NCBI GenBank assembly: GCA_050734515.1
Contig: JBOHUM010000029.1
Coordinates: 8,513-72,512, forward strand
DNA length: 64,000 nucleotides
Origin: Candidatus Dormibacteria bacterium
Lineage (GTDB): Bacteria > Chloroflexota > Dormibacteria > Aeolococcales > Bog-877
Reading direction: 5' to 3'
This document shows, piece after piece, positions 16,813 to 24,796 of this stretch. The position numbers and the translations under genes were made by a program. The stretch's first letter is position 1; each line of letters opens with the position of its first letter. The notes beneath the pieces were generated by a model. It worked only from the letters and a program-made list of their open reading frames with translations, searched no databases and was not told the DNA's origin.

Positions 16813-17304
16813 ATGCTGGAGGGCCCGCCGCCAACACCGCTCAGGCGCGGCCGTGGCCCCACCCTGCTGGTCGTCGCCGGCTTGATGCTGGCCCTGCTCC
16901 TCAGCGGCTGCAGCTTCTTCGGCGACAACGGCGCCCCCACCTCGGCTCACGGCCAGATCCAGCCCGGGAACCCGGTGCCCCAGAAGGACAGCAACCTCCA
17001 GATCAAGGCGCTGCCCCACCCACCCGGCAGCCCCGACTACCGGGTGATCATCTACCACAACGACAACACCGTGGGCGAGTTCGTGCCCGAGCAGCTGACA
17101 GTGCCGGTGGGCTCGGTTGTCGAATGGGTATGGACCGATCAGTACGACCAGCACAACGTCTGGTGGATCGACCAGAATCTGATCAACTCCCCCACCAAGG
17201 GGGCGGGCTACCGCTGGGCGGTGCGCTTCGTCGCCCCCGGTGTCTACGACTACTACTGCACCCTCCACCCCGGCATGCTGGGCCGTGTGGTCGTCACTGG
17301 TTAG
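16813..17304 (+). CDS. cupredoxin (type-1 blue copper) lipoprotein
   Basis: Signal peptide with lipobox (LLLSGCS). C-terminal type-1 Cu site YYCTLHPGM (Cys-x2-His-x2-Met) with an upstream His (QHNVWW). The fold is plastocyanin/amicyanin-like. Confidence 0.72.
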   Translation: MLEGPPPTPLRRGRGPTLLVVAGLMLALLLSGCSFFGDNGAPTSAHGQIQPGNPVPQKDSNLQIKALPHPPGSPDYRVIIYHNDNTVGEFVPEQLTVPVGSVVEWVWTDQYDQHNVWWIDQNLINSPTKGAGYRWAVRFVAPGVYDYYCTLHPGMLGRVVVTG

Positions 17305-17719
17305 GCGGCCCCTCATCCGGGCCCTGAGCGGCGCCGCGACTCTCGCCGCTGGGGGCGCGCTGCTCAGCGCCTGCATCGGCCCGGCGGTCCCGGCCACCCA
17401 CGCCCTCAACAACTGGCTGGCCGACGTCAGGGCCCACTCGGTCGCCTACGCCTACACCCTGCTCAGCAGCCAGGCGGAGATGAGGACTGACTACGACCAG
17501 TTCTTCGACGGGGTCAACCACACCCGGGCCAGCTACCGGATCCTTGCTACCAGGACCGTCTCCTCCACCGAGGTCACGGCGGTGGTCGAGGTCAGCAACG
17601 GCTCGTCGGCCCCAACCCGGGTCAGAGTGCAGATGATCGAGGAGGGCAACGCCGGCGACTGGCTGGTGGGTGAGCCTTTCACCGGCCAGGGGGCGAGGGC
17701 GATCCGCTACTTCAAGTAG
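17285..17719 (+). CDS. hypothetical lipoprotein
   Basis: A GTG at 17285 gives MWSSLVRRPLIRALSGAATLAAGGALLSAC, a signal peptide with lipobox LSAC. The mature part is 120 aa and hydrophilic. The track's ATG at 17240 would overlap the cupredoxin gene by 65 nt. Confidence 0.5.
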   Translation: MWSSLVRRPLIRALSGAATLAAGGALLSACIGPAVPATHALNNWLADVRAHSVAYAYTLLSSQAEMRTDYDQFFDGVNHTRASYRILATRTVSSTEVTAVVEVSNGSSAPTRVRVQMIEEGNAGDWLVGEPFTGQGARAIRYFK

Positions 17720-17820: not shown

Positions 17821-18018
17821 CTAGTGGGCCGATCGCCGTCCGACCAGCCAATAGGCGAGGGCTCCCAGGGTGTTCAGGGCGCTGGCAAGGCGCCACAGGC
17901 CCTGACTACCCCGCACCTGTTCCGGCGGGCGGCGGCCGAGGTCGCGCCAGGTGAACGCGACCACGGCGAGGTGGATGGGCAGGTAGCTGAGCAGTGCCCT
18001 GACGGACTTGTTGGTCAT
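17821..18018 (-). CDS. PLDc_N-like small membrane protein
   Basis: 65-aa product starting MTNKSVRALLSYLPIHLAVVAFTWRDL and ending ALAYWLVGRR. This resembles the short 'phospholipase_D-nuclease N-terminal' membrane micro-proteins. The upstream part of the track ORF is Pro/Arg-rich and non-protein-like. Confidence 0.5.
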   Translation of the reverse strand: MTNKSVRALLSYLPIHLAVVAFTWRDLGRRPPEQVRGSQGLWRLASALNTLGALAYWLVGRRSAH

Positions 18019-18199
18019 GGTGTTGCCTTCCGGGAATCGGTGGGATGTGGGTCCGGGCCGCCGGGGACGGAGGCGCCTGGCCCGAGGCTTGTCGGCGGCT
18101 TGGGGTGGCGATCCTGAACCGACGCCGCCTGGGCTTGGCACTTGGGAAAGTCGCTCCTCACCGGCCCGCACGGCGGCCGAGCTCGGCTGTGGGCCCGGC

Positions 18200-18607
18200 T
18201 CAGGCGCCGTCGGCACCGGGCGCCGGGCTCACCTGCACCGGACGATCGCTGCCGTTCTCCAGGAAGGGCAGCAGCTGGTCCGAGACCCCGATCTGCCGGA
18301 GCTTGGCCCAGCCCGCCTCGGGGGAAAGCTCGCAGCTGACCACGATGTCGTCCCCCACCACCACGATCTCCCACTCCAGCACCTCCAGGCGTCGCAGCAG
18401 GTCTGAGATCAGGGTGAGGCGGCTCTTGATTTCGTGGCCCACGGCGGCCAGGCGCACCGAAACCGGGATCCGGTCGGCGGAGGGCCGGTCGGGAAAGGCG
18501 AACGAGCGGACCTCGAAATAGGTCAGCAGCGAGATCGGGATCGGCTCCTTGGTCACGTGGGCGTACTCGGCCGCCGCCCGGGCGATGGGCCGCAGGACCA
18601 GCTTCAC
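18200..18607 (-). CDS. hypothetical protein (last gene of the bc/bd-like operon)
   Basis: A GTG at 18607 overlaps the stop of the upstream gene (GTGA). The 135-aa product (VKLVLRPIARAAAEYAHVTKEPIPISLLTYFEV…IVVVGDDIVVSCEL…) has a protein-like composition. The N-terminal 170 codons of the track ORF 18200-19120 are Arg/Pro-rich antisense artefact. Confidence 0.5.
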   Translation of the reverse strand: MKLVLRPIARAAAEYAHVTKEPIPISLLTYFEVRSFAFPDRPSADRIPVSVRLAAVGHEIKSRLTLISDLLRRLEVLEWEIVVVGDDIVVSCELSPEAGWAKLRQIGVSDQLLPFLENGSDRPVQVSPAPGADGA

Positions 18608-19998
18608 GGTCGGGTTGCCGGGGGCAGTATCACGCTCACGCTGGGCGGGCCCTGCATGGCGGGACCGGACTGGGATGGCGCCGAGAAGTTGCGCTGCTGG
18701 TTGATCAGCATCTGGTTGGTGATCAGGAACGGAGCACGGCTGTGCTCGCGTATGTAGCCCATCAGGGCCATGATCAGGCTGACCGCGACGCCCACGGTGA
18801 TCAGCGCCACCGCCTGCCCCTTGGTGGCGTCGCCCCAGCGCAGCCGGCCTCGGGAGACCTGGCGCAGGTAGATGGTGACGGCCACGATCGCCACCCCGGT
18901 GAAGACGGTCAGGGCGGTGAGCTTGAAGGGGATCATCGTTCCCCAGGGGATCTGCAAGCCGCCCTGCCAGATGGGCACGTTGGCGTTGGCGGCGAAGACG
19001 TCTTCGTAGCTCCACGACAGGGAAGCGGGGGTCGAGATCAGCAGCCAGGAGGCGAACGAGAGCGCGGTACAGACCGCCAGGGTGCGCGAGCGGAAGCCGC
19101 TGGCCCGGACCCGGCGCCACAGGTAGTAGATCCCCACGGTGAAGATCGCCCCCAGCAGAAAGACCTGGAAGAGGAAGGCGACGCTGAGGCCGCCCAGCAT
19201 CATGCTGTACCAGGCGGCGTAGGAGTGGAGTTGAACCTCCTTGGCGTACTCCCAGCCGATCAGGGGCTGGGCCAGGGTGAAGCCGATCGCGTAGATCAGC
19301 CCATAGTGGCCGATCCAGTCGCCGTAGGCTCGCTTCTCGCCGGTCTTGGAGATCAGGATCTTGACCCCCCCCGCCAGCGCCAGCAGCGCCCCGGCGAAGG
19401 CGATGTTGCCAACGAAGCGGTGAATCTCCAACGGGATCAGGGTGGGATTGAGCAGGTTGAGGGCCAGACTGGCCGCCGGGCGGGGGGTGAGCATGTAGGA
19501 GGCGACCACGTTGATGGCCAGCATCTGGATCGAGGCGTTGACGAACAGCAGCAGTTCGAGTCCGACCCGCAGCCCCCGCACCCGCTCTAGCTTGTCGAAG
19601 TTGGCGTAGACGGCGTAGAGGCAGATGATCTCGCCCACGAAGGCGAAGGCCTCCACCACCATCGGCCAGAACATGATCCGCAGCAGGGTCACGAAGAAGT
19701 GACTCCAGAGGCCGAGGAACAGGATCATGACGGCGAAGATCGCCAGGGCGGAGCCGAAGGCGAAGGTCGCCCCCAGAGCGGTCACCAGCTGCTTGGAGAA
19801 GCGGGTCTGGCGCTCGTCGTGCCGCTTCCAGCCGACGAAGTCGGTGACGGCCAGGATGATGTAGCCGCCCTGCTGCCAGGCGGCGAACTGGATGTGCACC
19901 AGCATCAGCAGCGCCACCAGCGCGGTGGCGACGCCGGTGGAGATGGGGAGCTTGACCAGGTGGGGGCTGCTGGCCAGCAGTAGCAGGCCGTCCCTCAC
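18604..19998 (-). CDS. cytochrome bd-type oxidase subunit I-like protein (CydA homologue 2)
   Basis: 464-aa polytopic membrane protein. It aligns to CydA helices 1-5. The His19 equivalent is MLVHIQF, the E99/E107 equivalents are PMVVEAFAFVGE, and the His186 equivalent is EIHRFVGNIAFAG. The Q-loop is short. Overlaps the cytochrome b stop by 4 nt. Confidence 0.7.
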   Translation of the reverse strand: MRDGLLLLASSPHLVKLPISTGVATALVALLMLVHIQFAAWQQGGYIILAVTDFVGWKRHDERQTRFSKQLVTALGATFAFGSALAIFAVMILFLGLWSHFFVTLLRIMFWPMVVEAFAFVGEIICLYAVYANFDKLERVRGLRVGLELLLFVNASIQMLAINVVASYMLTPRPAASLALNLLNPTLIPLEIHRFVGNIAFAGALLALAGGVKILISKTGEKRAYGDWIGHYGLIYAIGFTLAQPLIGWEYAKEVQLHSYAAWYSMMLGGLSVAFLFQVFLLGAIFTVGIYYLWRRVRASGFRSRTLAVCTALSFASWLLISTPASLSWSYEDVFAANANVPIWQGGLQIPWGTMIPFKLTALTVFTGVAIVAVTIYLRQVSRGRLRWGDATKGQAVALITVGVAVSLIMALMGYIREHSRAPFLITNQMLINQQRNFSAPSQSGPAMQGPPSVSVILPPATRP

Positions 19999-21221
19999 AG
20001 GTTGAAGAGCCGGTTCACGGCCAGCAGCGCTTCGAAGACGAGGAAAAGGACCGCGAAGAGCGCCGGAACCATCACCTCGGGGCGCCGCCAGGGTTCACGT
20101 GCCGGGCCCCGGTCGAGGAAGGGCACCAGGATCAGCAAGGTGGTGCCAATCCCGGGCAGGACGAAGACCCCGACCGGGATCATCCAGGCCTGGGGGAACT
20201 GGACCAGCAGTTGGTCAAGGGGCAGGAAGAACCACTCCGGAACCGGGACGTAGTTGAGGGCGGCAGGGTTGGCCGCCCGCTCCAGGGGTGCGCCCACCAC
20301 CACCGCCATGACGAACACGATCGCAACCAGCGCAAAGCTCAGCACGGCGTCCTTGAAGACCTGGGAGGGGAAGAAGTCGTCCAGGTCGACGGGGACCGCG
20401 TAGCCGGGGTCGGTGGGCACCGCCGGGTAGGGGTACTCGGCCTTGCTCATCCGGGCGGCCCGAGCCTCCTCGGTCTCCGTCTCCACTCCCTCGTAGTTCA
20501 CCCAGGAGCCGTGCTCGCCGTGGCGGCGGAGCAGGACCAGGTGGAGCAGGATCAGCGGCACCAGCAGGGCTGGCAGCAGCCAGATGTGGATGGCGAAGAA
20601 ACGGGTCAGGGTCTCCGGGCCCATCTGCGGGCCGCCCCGGAGGATGGCCTGGATCTGAGCGCCGAAGAGGGGGATGTAGTTGACGACGTGGGTGACCACG
20701 GTGGCGGTCCAGTAGGCGGCCTGGTCCCAGGGGAGCATGGCCCCGGTGATCCCCAGGCCCAGGACCAGAAGGAAGAGGATCACGCCCACGATCCAGTTGA
20801 GCTCGCGGGGCTTCTTGTAGGAGCCGCTGACGAAGGTCCGCAGCATGTGCATGCCGATCACCACGAAGAGCACGTAGGCGCCCCAGAGGTGCATGCCCCG
20901 GACGATGGCCGCGAACTCGTCGTGGCGCTCGATGTAGTTGAGGCTCCCCCAGGCCTCGGTGGTCGAGGGGACGTAGGTCCAGAGCAGGAACATCCCGGTG
21001 ACGATCTGGAGGACGATGATGATCAGGGTGGCGCTGCCCAGCGAGTAGGCCCAGGCCCCGCGCCGGGGAACCGCCTCGTAGAGGAGCTGGTGGGTCAGGT
21101 CCGAGACCCCCAGCCGCTCGTCCACCCAGCGGTAGGTGGCCGCCAGGGGGCGGGCCACCGGGCGGGTGAACTTGGCAAGCAGGTTGCTGCGCTCGACCCG
21201 CTCAGCCATTGGCCGCCTCAC
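19995..21221 (-). CDS. qcrB: cytochrome b (bc-complex, fused b6 + subunit IV type)
   Basis: 408 aa. Heme-ligand His pairs sit in helices B and D (GMHLWGAYVLF…HMLR; FFAIHIWLLPALL…HLVLL). PEW-like Qo motif (VPVPEWFFLP). Confidence 0.9.
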   Translation of the reverse strand: MRRPMAERVERSNLLAKFTRPVARPLAATYRWVDERLGVSDLTHQLLYEAVPRRGAWAYSLGSATLIIIVLQIVTGMFLLWTYVPSTTEAWGSLNYIERHDEFAAIVRGMHLWGAYVLFVVIGMHMLRTFVSGSYKKPRELNWIVGVILFLLVLGLGITGAMLPWDQAAYWTATVVTHVVNYIPLFGAQIQAILRGGPQMGPETLTRFFAIHIWLLPALLVPLILLHLVLLRRHGEHGSWVNYEGVETETEEARAARMSKAEYPYPAVPTDPGYAVPVDLDDFFPSQVFKDAVLSFALVAIVFVMAVVVGAPLERAANPAALNYVPVPEWFFLPLDQLLVQFPQAWMIPVGVFVLPGIGTTLLILVPFLDRGPAREPWRRPEVMVPALFAVLFLVFEALLAVNRLFNL

Positions 21222-21729
21222 CGGTGAGATTGTTGCGGACGTAGAGCGTGTTGCCCACCAGCTTGTGCTGGTAGCGGAAGAGCGGCCAGGGCGGCGGTCC
21301 GCCGATGTTGGTGCCGTCGATGCTGTAGAGCCCCCCGTGGCAGGGGCAGAGGAACTCCTGCAGGTTGAGGTCCCAATGGACGTCGCACTGCATGTGGGTG
21401 CAGATGTTGGAGAGGGTCAGCATCTGCACCTTGCCATTGAGGTTGAGCTTGACCACGTAGACGGTGCGCGGCACGGGCGGCACCTGCCAGCCCTCGTCGA
21501 TGGGCAGGTTGACCACGTAGGCGGTGGGGACGCCCACCGCCACCTGGCCGACGTCCGCCACCATCACCCAAGGGGTGCGCCGCCGGGCGAACACCGGGCT
21601 CAGCACCGAGCCCACGATCGGGGCGGCGATCAGCAGGGCGGTGCCGGCACCGGCGGCATTGATGCCCAGGAGCAGAAAGCGGCGGCGGGACATCCGCCGC
21701 CCGCCCGGCTGGCCGGGTTCCTCAGCCAC
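21202..21729 (-). CDS. qcrA: Rieske [2Fe-2S] protein with twin-arginine signal
   Basis: 175 aa. TAT motif SRRRFLLLG, one TM helix, and the Rieske boxes CTHMQC and CPCHGG. This is the short b6f-type length, not the ~400-aa three-TM actinobacterial QcrA. Confidence 0.9.
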   Translation of the reverse strand: MAEEPGQPGGRRMSRRRFLLLGINAAGAGTALLIAAPIVGSVLSPVFARRRTPWVMVADVGQVAVGVPTAYVVNLPIDEGWQVPPVPRTVYVVKLNLNGKVQMLTLSNICTHMQCDVHWDLNLQEFLCPCHGGLYSIDGTNIGGPPPWPLFRYQHKLVGNTLYVRNNLTGEAANG

Positions 21730-21955
21730 CCGCCAGGACCACGATCCCGACCAGGAGGGCCAGGCAAAGTCCGAGGATGAAGAGGAAGGTGTAGATCGAG
21801 GCCCCCACCGAGATCCAGGCCACCATCGGGTCGCCGCCGGCGGTGAGCCGGCGTACCCGCCTGGCCACCATCCTTATCCCCACCAGCATCAGGGCGAAGA
21901 AGCTGGCGATGAGCAGGCCCAGGTACCAGGAGGATTCGAAGTCCTGGTAGTTCAA
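21722..21955 (-). CDS. two-TM micro-protein (candidate small oxidase subunit)
   Basis: A TTG at 21955 overlaps the TGA stop of the upstream cydA-like gene (TTGA). The 77-aa product has two hydrophobic helices (SSWYLGLLIASFFALMLVGI; MVAWISVGASIYTFLFILGLCLALLVGIVVLAGG). It overlaps the Rieske start by 8 nt. An alternative start is the ATG at 21889. Confidence 0.45.
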   Translation of the reverse strand: MNYQDFESSWYLGLLIASFFALMLVGIRMVARRVRRLTAGGDPMVAWISVGASIYTFLFILGLCLALLVGIVVLAGG

Positions 21956-23241
21956 GGCTGGTAGCTCGGGGGGATGGTGAAGTTCTGGGCCGACTGATGC
22001 AGGCTGAGCAGGCAGCCTGGCTGGCCCTTGGCGGCGTCGATGCCACAGGGCAGCTTGGCGTTCTCCTTGATCACCCCCATATACAGGGAGAGGGCCAGGG
22101 CGCAGACCCCGACCAGGGCGATCGCTCGACCCGCCACCGGGGGGATCTGCAGGTCGGTACCCCGCCGCCGCAGCGAGCGGATGTAGAGCACCAGATTGGC
22201 GGCGGTGGCCAAGAACGCGATCAGCAGGGCAACGTAGCGCAGGGCCACCACCGAGCTGGGGATGATGCCCGCGGGCAGCACCGCCCCGGCCATCCCCAGC
22301 AGAGCGATCACGGTCAGGCTGCCTCCGCCGGCACCCTCGTGGTGGCGCCAGAAGACCAGGTTGGCCCCCAGCACCACCACCGCCAGCAGCACCACCTGGC
22401 CGATGAAGAGCGAGGCGGAGTTGAGCACGAAGAGGTTGTCGTAGACGGGGATGGCGCTGTTCTTGATCGACTCCGCGAGGATGAAGCCGGTGACCGGCTG
22501 GGCGAGCAGGAACACCGAGCCGATGGCGAAGTTGACCCGAGCCGCCCAGCGCTGGTAGGTGACCTCGGCCGGGTTGCGGGCCCGCCGCCCCCGCCAGATG
22601 GCGATCGCCGCCAGCAGCAGCGCCCCCCAGGAGAGGTTGGCGCCGGCGTAGTGGAGCAAGAGCCAGGGATAGCTCGGGGACCAGGGCGAGGCCACGGCGC
22701 TGCCGGGGTTGAGGGCGTAGCTGTCCAGCTGCACGATGAGGAAGAGGAAGGCGTACTGGAAGATGGCGAAGAGGAAGCCCACCGCCAGGTGCAGCTTGGC
22801 GCCCAAGCGATCCCATCCGTACACGTAGATGAGCAGCAAGGGGATGCCGACGAAGAAGCTGGCGAAGGCGATCGTGAGGGGCAGCAGCAGCTGGTTGAGC
22901 AGGGTCCCCACCAGCCGTCCGTAGAGGCCGGTCAGCAGCACCACGGCGAAGACCGCCCAGGTCGCCCCCAGGCTGTACAGGTAGAGCACCGAGTGAGCCA
23001 GGCGCCGGGCGTAGCGGAGGCACATCGGGTCGCCCCCCCGGCGTAGCCCCGCCAGCTCCATGAAGGGGGCCAGGCCGGAGGCGGCCAGGACGAAGCCCAC
23101 CAGGGCGATGTGGAGCAGGAAGACGGTGCCGATGGCCAGTTCCGCGCCCAGGGTCCCGAATGGCAGCCGCGGATTGGCGATCGCGAGCGAGGACACCAGC
23201 ACTTCGCCCCAATGCTGACGGCAGCGGCCACCCCAAGGCAA
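21952..23241 (-). CDS. cytochrome bd-type oxidase subunit I-like protein (CydA homologue 1)
   Basis: 429 aa. It has a CydA-like helix 1 His (FLLHIALVGF), a GWDRLG motif identical to the CydA helix 3/4 loop, and a second His (LLLHYAG). The E99/E107 positions are Thr/Val. There is no long Q-loop. The start may be an internal GTG near 23190. Confidence 0.7.
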   Translation of the reverse strand: MPWGGRCRQHWGEVLVSSLAIANPRLPFGTLGAELAIGTVFLLHIALVGFVLAASGLAPFMELAGLRRGGDPMCLRYARRLAHSVLYLYSLGATWAVFAVVLLTGLYGRLVGTLLNQLLLPLTIAFASFFVGIPLLLIYVYGWDRLGAKLHLAVGFLFAIFQYAFLFLIVQLDSYALNPGSAVASPWSPSYPWLLLHYAGANLSWGALLLAAIAIWRGRRARNPAEVTYQRWAARVNFAIGSVFLLAQPVTGFILAESIKNSAIPVYDNLFVLNSASLFIGQVVLLAVVVLGANLVFWRHHEGAGGGSLTVIALLGMAGAVLPAGIIPSSVVALRYVALLIAFLATAANLVLYIRSLRRRGTDLQIPPVAGRAIALVGVCALALSLYMGVIKENAKLPCGIDAAKGQPGCLLSLHQSAQNFTIPPSYQP

Positions 23242-23297
23242 CTCCCCAACTGCCGCGCTGCAGGCCCCCAGCCCCCGGCGCCCGGATAATCGCCGAG

Positions 23298-24251
23298 GTG
23301 CCCGAGCCCCTAGTCGTCGTCTACGGCGACGACCCCCACCTGGTGACCACTGAGGCCCTGCGGCTGCGCGACCAGCTCGCCCGAGAGCTGGGCTCGGAGC
23401 TGAGCCTGGAGGAGTTCCGGCGCAGCCGCGACCTCGACGCCATCGCCCAGAGCGTCGCCACCCCGCCCTTCCTCGCCCTGCGCCGGGTGGTGGTCCTCTG
23501 GGATCCCCCCCAACTGGAGGCGGGCCAGCGCGCCGACCGGGAAGCGGAGCGGCTGGCGACCTTGCTGGGGGAGCGCATGGAGACCACGGCGGTGGTGGTG
23601 GTGGGCCGGCAACCGGGAGCTGGCACCTCCGCGCTCCTACGCGCCCTCAAGGCCGCCGGCGCCGAGGTCCGGCGGCTGCAGCGGCCCCGCGGGCAGGAGC
23701 TCCGCCAGCACGTGCGCCGACGCTTGGAGGAGCGGCGGCTGCGCGTCGGCCGGGGAGTGCTGGAGCGACTGCTGGACGTGGCCGCCCGCGACATGGGGCA
23801 GCTGGAGCAAGAGCTGGAGAAGCTCGAGCTCTACACCGGGGGCTCGGCAGAGCTGGCCGACGGGGTGGGCCTGCAGCTGGTGACCGCCGCCCCCCCGACC
23901 GAGGTCTACCGGATCACCGACGCCCTCTTCGAGACCCCCCGGCGGCTGGGTGAGCGCCTGGCGCTGGCCCCGGAGCTGCCGCCGCCGCTGGTGGTGGGTG
24001 CGCTGGCCCGGGTGCTCCGGGATCTCATCGCCCTGGCCGACCCGGAGCAGGCCCCGAGCGACCTTCCCCGATGGAGACAGGAGAAGCTGCAAAACCAGCT
24101 CCACCGGGCCGGCCCCGCCCGCCTGCGCCGCTGGCTGGTGCAGCTGGCCGACCTGGACTGGGCGGCACGCACCGGGGCGATCGAACTCTCCGAGGGCTTG
24201 GCCGCCGTCCTGGCGGGGATGGCCACCGAGCTGGCCAGCGCCGCCGCCTGA
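23298..24251 (+). CDS. holA: DNA polymerase III delta subunit
   Basis: The GTG at 23298 gives VPEPLVVVYGDDPHLV, the typical HolA N-terminus. Domains I-III are conserved (RRVVVLWDPPQL…ELEKLELYTGG). The track's ATG at 23160 would overlap the divergent cydA-like gene. Confidence 0.8.
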   Translation: MPEPLVVVYGDDPHLVTTEALRLRDQLARELGSELSLEEFRRSRDLDAIAQSVATPPFLALRRVVVLWDPPQLEAGQRADREAERLATLLGERMETTAVVVVGRQPGAGTSALLRALKAAGAEVRRLQRPRGQELRQHVRRRLEERRLRVGRGVLERLLDVAARDMGQLEQELEKLELYTGGSAELADGVGLQLVTAAPPTEVYRITDALFETPRRLGERLALAPELPPPLVVGALARVLRDLIALADPEQAPSDLPRWRQEKLQNQLHRAGPARLRRWLVQLADLDWAARTGAIELSEGLAAVLAGMATELASAAA

Positions 24252-24254
24252 GGC

Positions 24255-24695
24255 TCAGGCCCCGGCCGCGTCCTTGCCGGCGGCGCGCCGCTGGCTGGCC
24301 GCGGTGCGCTCGGTCTTGGTTGCCGAGCGCCGGGTCTTGGCCGCCGCCGGCTTGCGCGCGGCCGCGGCCTTGGGCCGGGTGCCCCGCGCCGCCGGCCTGC
24401 TCTTGGCCACGGTGACGCGCTCCTCGCCGGCCAGGGCCGCCAGGTGCGCCTGGCGCATCAGGCGCGACTTGCGGCGGGCCGCGTTGCGGGGGTGGATGAT
24501 CCCGTGCTCGGCGGCCCGGTCGAGAGCCGAGACCGCCGCCCGCACCAGCTCGCCGGGACCAGCCTCAGATGGCGACTCGATCGCGCGCCTGACCTTGGCC
24601 ACCACGGTGCGCACCGAGGAGCGCACCCGGCGGTTGCGCTCGTGCTTGCGGGCGATCGAGCGGATGCGCTTGCGGGCAGAGGAGGAGTTGGCCAA
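24255..24695 (-). CDS. rpsT: 30S ribosomal protein S20 with Ala/Lys/Arg-rich C-terminal extension
   Basis: A TTG at 24695 gives (M)ANSSSARKRIRSIARKHERNRRVRSSVRT, the canonical S20 N-terminus. A ~55-aa basic tail follows (…AKSRPAARGTRPKAAAARKPAAAKTRRSATKTERTAASQRRAAGK). Convergent with holA. Confidence 0.85.
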   Translation of the reverse strand: MANSSSARKRIRSIARKHERNRRVRSSVRTVVAKVRRAIESPSEAGPGELVRAAVSALDRAAEHGIIHPRNAARRKSRLMRQAHLAALAGEERVTVAKSRPAARGTRPKAAAARKPAAAKTRRSATKTERTAASQRRAAGKDAAGA

Positions 24696-24796
24696 TGCTC
24701 TCCAGCGATGGGACCCGGCGTGGGTCCGCGGGCCGGCGAGTTGCCGGGCGGCGCTGAAGTATAGCAACGGCAGCGGCGGCGCCCCTCACCGCTAGA

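Follow-up and report, generated by a model that had tools for sequence, protein, structure and literature searches.

In this work, we found that a 64-kb window (the whole stretch of DNA analysed, from contig JBOHUM010000029.1 of a Candidatus Dormibacteria bacterium) contains a six-gene operon that is very probably an OR-N5-type module of the cytochrome bd superfamily. In the reading that we favor, with a probability of roughly 55–60%, this locus is the Dormibacterota OR-N5a/b operon, in which a b6-type Rieske/cytochrome b module oxidizes quinol and a CydA/CydA′ heterodimer receives the electrons by the path proposed below. The genes are as follows, in the direction of transcription, with lengths in amino acids (aa) and with a- and b-type designations as assigned from sequence in the next section.

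21952–23241, minus strand: b-type CydA′, 429 aa by the longest open reading frame (ORF)
21722–21955, minus strand: two-helix micro-protein, 77 aa
21202–21729, minus strand: Rieske protein, 175 aa, PF00355, with a twin-arginine translocation (TAT) signal
19995–21221, minus strand: fused cytochrome b6/subunit-IV protein, 408 aa, PF00033
18604–19998, minus strand: a-type CydA, 464 aa, recognized by family profile and fold
18200–18607, minus strand: soluble orphan, 135 aa, at the end of the six-gene series

A sequence-only reading of this DNA had described six minus-strand genes chained by overlaps of 4–20 nucleotides (nt), and the ORFs were recovered at these positions. When the longest-ORF starts are used, neighbouring genes overlap by 4 (TTGA), 8, 20, 4 (GTGA), and 4 (GTGA) nt, from the first junction to the last. 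The six frames are considered real genes because their third-position GC content (GC3, 0.91–0.94) fits a genome with 71% GC, the value found for the window. Moreover, homologues of all six genes are conserved at the same positions in other loci. For the first gene, the ORF coordinates were confirmed but the length of 429 aa was not; translation probably starts at GTG 23202, which gives 416 aa and agrees with both the NCBI gene model and the homologues. A scan for promoters and terminators found no promoter and three weak terminator-like sites inside genes, compared with 1.7 expected by chance. Such a tight and conserved arrangement is consistent with one co-assembled module.

The operon is flanked by housekeeping genes (holA, rpsT, ispE, ppk1, nth, glmU, and prs). 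None of its six proteins has a CxxCH motif, nor do the products of the other genes called in the 64-kb window. No cydB-like gene was found in the operon, its flanks, or the window, and haem-copper oxidase and cytochrome c genes are likewise missing among the window genes. Thus, the earlier statements that cydB and an adjacent cytochrome c gene are lacking hold across the entire 64 kb.

The two CydA-like proteins

Pfam, profile, and predicted fold place both CydA-like proteins in the cytochrome bd subunit-I superfamily, as had been proposed from the sequence. Both match proteins of NCBI metagenome-assembled genomes from Candidatus Dormibacteria with 100% identity. The 429-aa protein matches PF01654 (Cyt_bd_oxida_I; E = 1.9e-11), and its family profile matches the solved CydA chains 9r2g_A (4.8e-14) and 5doq_A (2e-10). 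The 464-aa protein alone has no match in Pfam or NCBIfam. However, many relatives with 40–45% identity to it carry PF01654, and its family profile matches Geobacillus CydA 5doq_A at 3.4e-12. The AlphaFold2 (AF2) models of the 464-aa protein (pLDDT 75, pTM 0.77) and the 429-aa protein (pLDDT 78, pTM 0.81) each have approximately 10 transmembrane (TM) helices. When both models were compared with the Protein Data Bank (PDB) by Foldseek, the ten best matches were CydA chains (E = 6e-7 to 6e-4, TM-score 0.43–0.56), followed by CydB. An unrelated transporter family was considered and rejected, as transporters appeared in the fold searches only at E > 0.1 and TM-score < 0.25.

The two proteins align as paralogues along their entire length (24% identity, E = 5e-12). 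They had been taken for two like subunits, a view that we abandoned because the channel glutamates are present only in the 464-aa protein, which suggests that the two differ in function. In the 464-aa family, H35, E116, H193, and E418 do not vary, and E123 is retained in most members; in this order, the five residues align with E. coli H19, E99, H186, E445, and E107. The conservation of these haem-ligand and channel residues spans sequences that are 33–45% identical and extends across phyla. In the 429-aa family, H44, H151, H197, and E393 are invariant. The protein keeps the equivalents of H19, H126, H186, and E445 but lacks both glutamates, with Ala125 and Gly132 at the positions of E. coli Glu99 and Glu107. 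Consistent with this, an active-site test of the first four helices found H35, E116, and E123 in the 464-aa protein and H44 only in the 429-aa protein. Among the subfamilies of the superfamily, those labeled “a” keep E99/E107 and those labeled “b” do not (Murali, Gennis & Hemp 2021, bioRxiv 10.1101/2021.01.16.426971). Because the glutamates are kept in one protein and lost in the other, we assign the 464-aa protein as the a-type, putative catalytic subunit and the 429-aa protein as a b-type CydA′ that would take the place of CydB.

Two further claims of the sequence-only reading concern cofactor sites. Both proteins were said to keep the helix-1 and helix-5 His ligands of haem b558; this is correct for the helix-5 His (His186), whereas the helix-1 His is the counterpart of E. 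coli His19, a ligand at the haem d/b595 site (His assignments to haems follow the table header in the supplement of Murali et al.). The Q-loops were said to be short, but the loop is effectively absent, with approximately 12 residues joining TM6 to TM7 in the a-type AF2 model. The profile alignments of both families to solved CydA end at TM4–6. Based on these models, the CydA/CydA′ pair appears to have neither a Q-loop nor a quinol site of its own.

The lack of a recognizable Q-loop, the complete escape of the 464-aa protein from Pfam, and the loss of the channel glutamates in the b-type could also be explained if the CydA-like proteins had no catalytic role and instead bound quinol or acted as a scaffold in an unusual bc complex. 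We regard this explanation as very improbable. The conservation of the a-type haem-ligand and channel residues across phyla points to a working redox site, and the loss of the Q-loop itself makes CydA less likely to bind quinol.

In the C-terminal tail of the b-type protein (window positions 21952–22060), C399 and C410 are conserved in the close clade, while distant homologues have a shorter tail without them. If the N-terminus faces outward as it does in CydA, ten helices should place this tail outside the cytoplasm, a topology that we deduced by analogy, and a disulfide between these two residues is possible.

The Rieske/cytochrome b pair and comparison with known systems

The Rieske protein matches PF00355 (E = 2.4e-6) and has the cluster boxes CTHMQC (C110/H112/C115) and CPCHGG (C128/C130/H131), preceded by an RRRF twin-arginine signal. 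Next to the cluster ligands, C115 and C130 would form the disulfide that is typical of Rieske proteins from bc complexes. The best PDB matches are the b6f Rieske 8hn2_A (7e-14) and Aquifex Rieske-I 6kls_A, and the match to NCBIfam PetC (1.2e-14) is below the equivalog cut-off. Based on these features, the protein is a b6f-like and putatively TAT-exported equivalent of petA/petC.

The cytochrome b matches PF00033 (6e-47) and, below the Pfam cut-off, PF00032 (1.4e-3). It has seven predicted TM helices, haem ligands His111/His125 and His212/His227, and PEWF in place of PEWY. The helix-D histidines are separated by 14 residues, which is the b6-type spacing. A covalently bound haem ci is not expected because the protein has no Cys. 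The best PDB matches are cytochrome b6 (1.4e-47), compared with 1e-14 to 4e-18 for actinobacterial QcrB. Residues 3–265 share 47.5% identity with Rubrobacter cytochrome b, and residues 246–408 share 34% with subunit IV, which is a separate protein in Rubrobacter. Because its two halves match these separate proteins, the Dormibacterota cytochrome b is best described as a petB-petD fusion, with a b6-like N-terminal half and a subunit-IV-like C-terminal half. The earlier call of a short b6f-type Rieske rather than QcrA is supported, as profile and PDB searches placed both the Rieske protein and the cytochrome b far nearer to b6f than to QcrA/QcrB.

To survey relatives, we scanned one genome per species (185,579 species) and found 182 relatives of the a-type protein. 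Among the 78 best of these 182 loci, nearly all are from Dormibacterota. The order b-CydA/Rieske/cytochrome b/a-CydA is kept in 71 of the 71 loci with enough upstream sequence to show it, always on one strand and within 4.5 kb, down to 36% identity. The gene context on which the sequence-only reading was built is therefore conserved across related genomes. A search with the a-type profile, covering 5.8 billion proteins, found the nearest named relatives outside Dormibacterota in Rubrobacter taiwanensis and a Rubrobacteraceae metagenome-assembled genome (about 1e-100, with 8.6e-100 for the R. taiwanensis orthologue); beyond the Rubrobacter group, the next match is at 6e-10.

The Rubrobacter loci contain, in this order, genes for b-CydA (437 aa), Rieske (211 aa), cytochrome b (261 aa), subunit IV (167 aa), a-CydA (448 aa), and an ORF of 41–47 aa, and this operon has no c-type haem motif either. 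Compared with the two Rubrobacter CydA-like proteins, the window a-type protein reaches 198 bits with its a-type counterpart and 65 bits with the b-type. Similarly, the window b-type protein scores 130 bits against the Rubrobacter b-type and 68 against the a-type. The Rieske proteins of the two operons are 29% identical (E = 1.6e-23). By these scores and the gene order, the window operon is the syntenic orthologue of the OR-N5 operon of Rubrobacter. The duplication that gave rise to the a and b genes predates the split of the two phyla because each window protein scores higher against its own type in the other phylum.

The bd superfamily has been split into the qOR, OR-C, and OR-N families (Murali, Gennis & Hemp, bioRxiv 10.1101/2021.01.16.426971; ISME J 2021). 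For OR-N5a and OR-N5b, the references are Rubrobacter xylanophilus WP_143528031.1 and WP_143528035.1, and a second pair comes from a “Chloroflexi bacterium” (TMC48000.1/TMC47996.1) (Murali et al., bioRxiv 10.1101/2021.01.16.426971). We sought a link between our locus and this second pair via cluster accessions, and no TMC accession turned up. In Table S6 of that work, OR-N5a of R. xylanophilus has 10 helices, H24, E104, E111, H132, H183, and E406, without Met393; OR-N5b has H34, A115, T122, H202, and S405 (S/E/T), also without a Met393 equivalent (bioRxiv 10.1101/2021.01.16.426971). Our placement in OR-N5 was made via the R. taiwanensis orthologue P0155, using residue positions, scores, and synteny, rather than via the R. 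xylanophilus reference sequences. P0155 has H24, E104, W118, N120, H132, H183, and E406 at the exact published OR-N5a positions, and its partner has H/A/T/H/S at the published OR-N5b positions. The window residues H35, E116, E123, H193, and E418 align to P0155 H24, E104, Q111, H183, and E406.

The window operon resembles OR-N5a/b in having a CydA paralogue pair of which “a” keeps the E99/E107 equivalents and “b” does not, in having approximately 10 TM helices without a quinol site or Met393, and in having the Rieske and petB/petD homologues between both CydA genes in the order of the Rubrobacter operon. It differs from the Rubrobacter operons in that a single 408-aa protein combines cytochrome b with subunit IV, that an additional micro-protein with two helices is encoded between b-CydA and Rieske, that a 135-aa orphan rather than the 41–47-aa ORF follows a-CydA, and that the His126 equivalent is Arg. 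In addition, the E107 equivalent is Glu in the window and Gln in R. taiwanensis.

A Rieske/cytochrome b unit combined with bd-like proteins has already been described, from genomes only. OR-N5a/b adjoining petA/petB/petD were reported in 2021, with quinol inferred as the donor, and the same survey lists OR-N-type enzymes in 27 phyla and marks Dormibacterota as OR-N-positive (Murali et al., bioRxiv 10.1101/2021.01.16.426971). Thus, the sequence-only reading was mistaken in considering this respiratory architecture undescribed, while its supercomplex-like interpretation of the locus matches a published hypothesis. It had also held that CydA-only forms are mainly archaeal, which is true only for the qOR4a/b CydAA′ type; a/b paralogue pairs are listed in bacteria as well (Murali et al., bioRxiv 10.1101/2021.01.16.426971). 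For Nitrospirales, OR-N5 has been described downstream of alternative complex III (PMC12342949).

In Nitrospira, OR-N1/OR-N2 bd-like oxidases cluster with complex III (CIII_1), and a III–IV supercomplex of complex III with the bd-like proteins has been proposed (for Nitrospira moscoviensis, PMC6606698). As in the window, these bd-like subunit-I homologues lack a quinol site and adjoin Rieske/cytochrome b genes. However, they have 14 TM helices and belong to other subfamilies, and the Nitrospira clusters include NxrC-like genes and several c-type cytochromes, none of which occurs in the window operon.

The archaeal CydAA′ (qOR4a/qOR4b) of Caldivirga maquilingensis also has a CydA paralogue in place of CydB and is the only characterized bd enzyme of this kind (bioRxiv 10.1101/2021.01.16.426971). 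The enzyme is active with b-type haems only, which shows that a CydA/CydA′ pair can reduce O2. Unlike the window pair, qOR4a has retained Met393 and the quinol site and accepts its electrons from quinol itself; the qOR4 proteins have 8 TM helices, occur in Archaea only, and have no Rieske/cytochrome b partners. Canonical CydAB(X) of E. coli, Geobacillus, and Mycobacterium shares the subunit-I fold and the H19, E99, E107, H186, and E445 equivalents with the a-type protein. In contrast, the window pair has no CydB, Q-loop/quinol site, or Met393, its proteins have 10 helices instead of 9, and its genes lie inside a bc-type operon. Compared with cytochrome b6f and Firmicute-type bc complexes, the window operon shares the b6-like cytochrome b spacing, the subunit-IV homologue, and the short TAT-signal Rieske, but lacks cytochrome f, cytochrome c1, a di-haem c, and the haem ci cysteine.

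One branch of the family, P0145 (loci L079, 926–3206, and L080), is approximately 34% identical to the a-type protein and also has the a-type CydA after cytochrome b. Here, the place of the 135-aa orphan after a-CydA is taken by a c-type cytochrome of 198 aa (PF13442) and an ORF of 103 aa. Judged by gene content, this branch has a haem c-containing variant of the module. In locus L015 of one Dormibacterota genome (13483–15104), a second and separate b6-like cytochrome b gene (214 aa) lies approximately 5 kb downstream of the module, followed by an overlapping 389-aa ORF with a C-terminus that is hydrophobic by eye. Some Dormibacterota may encode another cytochrome b complex near the module.

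Proposed electron path and its alternatives

In the actinobacterial bcc-aa3 obligate supercomplex, electrons pass from quinol to O2 without a soluble carrier. The complex that we propose is a functional analogue in this respect, but its oxidase partner would be of the bd type and not a haem-copper oxidase. Quinol would be oxidized at the Qo site of cytochrome b, with one electron passed to the [2Fe-2S] cluster of the exported Rieske protein. Because no cytochrome c1 or f is present, the Rieske protein would then reduce the His193-ligated haem of the a-type subunit (the b558 equivalent) directly, possibly via haems of the b-type subunit. From there, the electron would reach the di-haem site (His35, Glu418), where O2 would be reduced to water with cytoplasmic protons arriving through Glu116/Glu123. 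The second electron would return via haems bL and bH to the Qi site in a Q-cycle. Overall, the complex would act as a quinol:O2 oxidoreductase that is free of cytochrome c. By charge counting, the Q-cycle and the bd-type chemistry would each contribute 1 charge per electron, approximately 2 in total, compared with 1 for a bd oxidase working alone and 3 for bc1-aa3. Physical co-assembly, the Rieske-to-haem-b step, O2 as the substrate, the haem content, and the energy yield are what we infer for this complex.

A stricter version holds that the six-gene form is an obligate c-free quinol:O2 supercomplex, in which the Rieske protein reduces b haems, CydA′ binds haems, and the micro-protein and the orphan complete the assembly. 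Haem binding by CydA′ is suggested because His44, His197, and Glu393 are kept, unlike in CydB. We put forward this version tentatively and judge its chances to be somewhat below even.

Several points weigh against the proposed path. No purification, assay, or structure of any OR-N enzyme was found in the literature searched, and O2 reduction is extrapolated from qOR enzymes. In the Dormibacterota a-type proteins, the His126 equivalent is Arg144 and, in line with the published OR-N5 rows, haem b558 has no Met393 ligand. The AF2 models of both CydA-like proteins are of moderate confidence (pLDDT 75–78), and co-transcription is read from gene overlaps alone. Finally, a lipoprotein cupredoxin is encoded close by and could serve as an alternative acceptor. 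Literature searches on the Dormibacterota respiratory chain, OR-N5 experiments, and cryo-electron microscopy of bd-like enzymes returned nothing specific.

The cupredoxin is of type 1 (16813–17304, plus strand; 163 aa; PF00127, 8.7e-8) and amicyanin/plastocyanin-like, with copper ligands H114/C149/H152/M155 and a lipoprotein signal (LLSGC33). An ORF of 159 aa without an assigned family (17240–17719, plus strand) overlaps its 3′ end, and the pair is convergent with the operon.

With such a carrier at hand, the operon could encode two enzymes: an ordinary complex III formed by Rieske/cytochrome b that reduces a diffusible or lipid-anchored carrier such as the cupredoxin, and a separate CydA/CydA′ oxidase fed by that carrier. 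The cupredoxin with its lipobox is encoded approximately 0.9 kb beyond the operon end, and a cupredoxin gene occurs within about 0.4–6 kb in 24 of 41 clade-I loci. The P0145 branch has a cytochrome c gene right after a-type CydA, and “alternative electron donors” is all that has been said for OR-N enzymes as a group (bioRxiv 10.1101/2021.01.16.426971). However, the cupredoxin gene is on the opposite strand and outside the operon, and no such gene was found near the operon in any of 42 more distant loci or in the Rubrobacter loci. Because of this absence, its proximity may reflect plain synteny among close relatives, in which holA synteny is also kept. Furthermore, in every locus the CydA genes flank Rieske/cytochrome b and translation is coupled, an arrangement more typical of one assembly. 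We therefore consider the two-enzyme arrangement unlikely.

The acceptor could also be something other than O2, such as NO, peroxide, or a nitrogen oxide, or the CydA-like proteins could act as a wire of b haems that carries electrons in reverse or into a side branch. The literature searched contains no assay of an OR-N5 member, and for some of the Nitrospira bd-like proteins, reverse electron flow or anchoring of nitrite oxidoreductase (NXR) has been proposed (PMC6606698). The replacement of the H126 equivalent by Arg and the missing Met393 also fit such a role. So does the retention in the b-type of haem-ligand residues that CydB does not have; to our knowledge, CydB carries none of the haem ligands. 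On the other hand, the a-type protein keeps the H19, E99, E107, and E445 equivalents that are used for O2 reduction in characterized enzymes. No nitrite oxidoreductase, nitrogen-oxide, or peroxide-related gene was found in the operon or the 64-kb window, and Dormibacterota are described as aerobes. These observations make a non-oxygen function improbable, and we favor O2 as the acceptor of the CydA/CydA′ heterodimer.

Accessory genes, neighbours, and implications for Dormibacterota

Two small genes of the operon have no recognizable family. The 77-aa protein (GC3 0.91) has two hydrophobic helices and no Pfam or NCBIfam family above threshold, and was found by tblastn in 39 of 41 clade-I loci. 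At its position, 10 of 13 distant Dormibacterota loci examined have an ORF of 84–124 aa with 1–2 predicted TM helices, and these ORFs share an N-terminal (D/Q)F(E/Q)xxWY motif. No ORF fits this position in the Rubrobacter loci, where the gap between b-CydA and Rieske is 11–39 nt. Judged from this distribution, the 77-aa protein is a candidate for a lineage-specific small subunit.

The 135-aa protein (GC3 0.92) has no TM helix and no relative in Pfam, NCBIfam, or PDB. Its gene is coupled to that of a-type CydA by the GTGA overlap and was found by tblastn in 38 of 41 clade-I loci; nine more distant loci have weak matches (27–39% identity), and in clade II a 143-aa gene occupies the position after a-CydA. 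Among 1.84 billion proteins, 13 cluster representatives match it at E <= 1e-3. A role as an assembly factor or cytoplasmic subunit is possible.

Other genes near the operon or near related loci are as follows.

23160–24251, plus strand: divergent holA-like gene (DNA polymerase III delta) with a longest ORF that overlaps the start of the b-type gene
24255–24767, minus strand: ribosomal protein S20 ORF, 170 aa, with the S20 domain at residues 26–106
17821–18018 (or to 18216), minus strand: small ORF directly 3′ of the 135-aa gene, 65 aa from ATG or 131 aa as the longest ORF

The holA-like ORF matches its Pfam family only from residue 53 onward, and translation more likely starts at a GTG near 23290. 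This start would leave an intergenic region of approximately 90 nt for the promoters of both this gene and the b-type gene, and no sigma-70-like site was found in that region. The S20 protein has a C-terminal extension of approximately 60 aa that is basic and Ala/Arg/Lys-rich, a length unusual for S20. For the ORF at 17821–18216, the hydropathy scan of the 131-aa form found no helix above threshold, and no Pfam or NCBIfam family was assigned. In two otherwise different loci, genes that combine universal stress protein (Usp) and PCP_red domains occur near the module, directly upstream in L082 (1237–3753) and approximately 4 kb downstream in L079 (6317–7519), which hints at stress- or hypoxia-linked regulation.

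The OR-N5 module is probably part of respiration in this uncultured soil phylum because the family is found in many Dormibacterota genomes. The architecture itself is published; what is new here is the assignment of the a and b subunits and the features that differ from the Rubrobacter operons. Likewise, the general idea of such a complex is in print, and direct transfer from FeS to haem b together with a haem-bearing CydA′ would, if shown, be new biochemistry. If the module works as proposed, it would represent a third route for coupling quinol oxidation to O2 reduction, in addition to haem-copper supercomplexes and stand-alone bd oxidases. Such a Q-cycle-coupled bd-type oxidase, presumably of high affinity, would give about twice the energy yield of canonical bd. 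This intermediate yield, obtained with no need for a c-type cytochrome, would suit the low-energy, trace-gas-scavenging lifestyle of the phylum.

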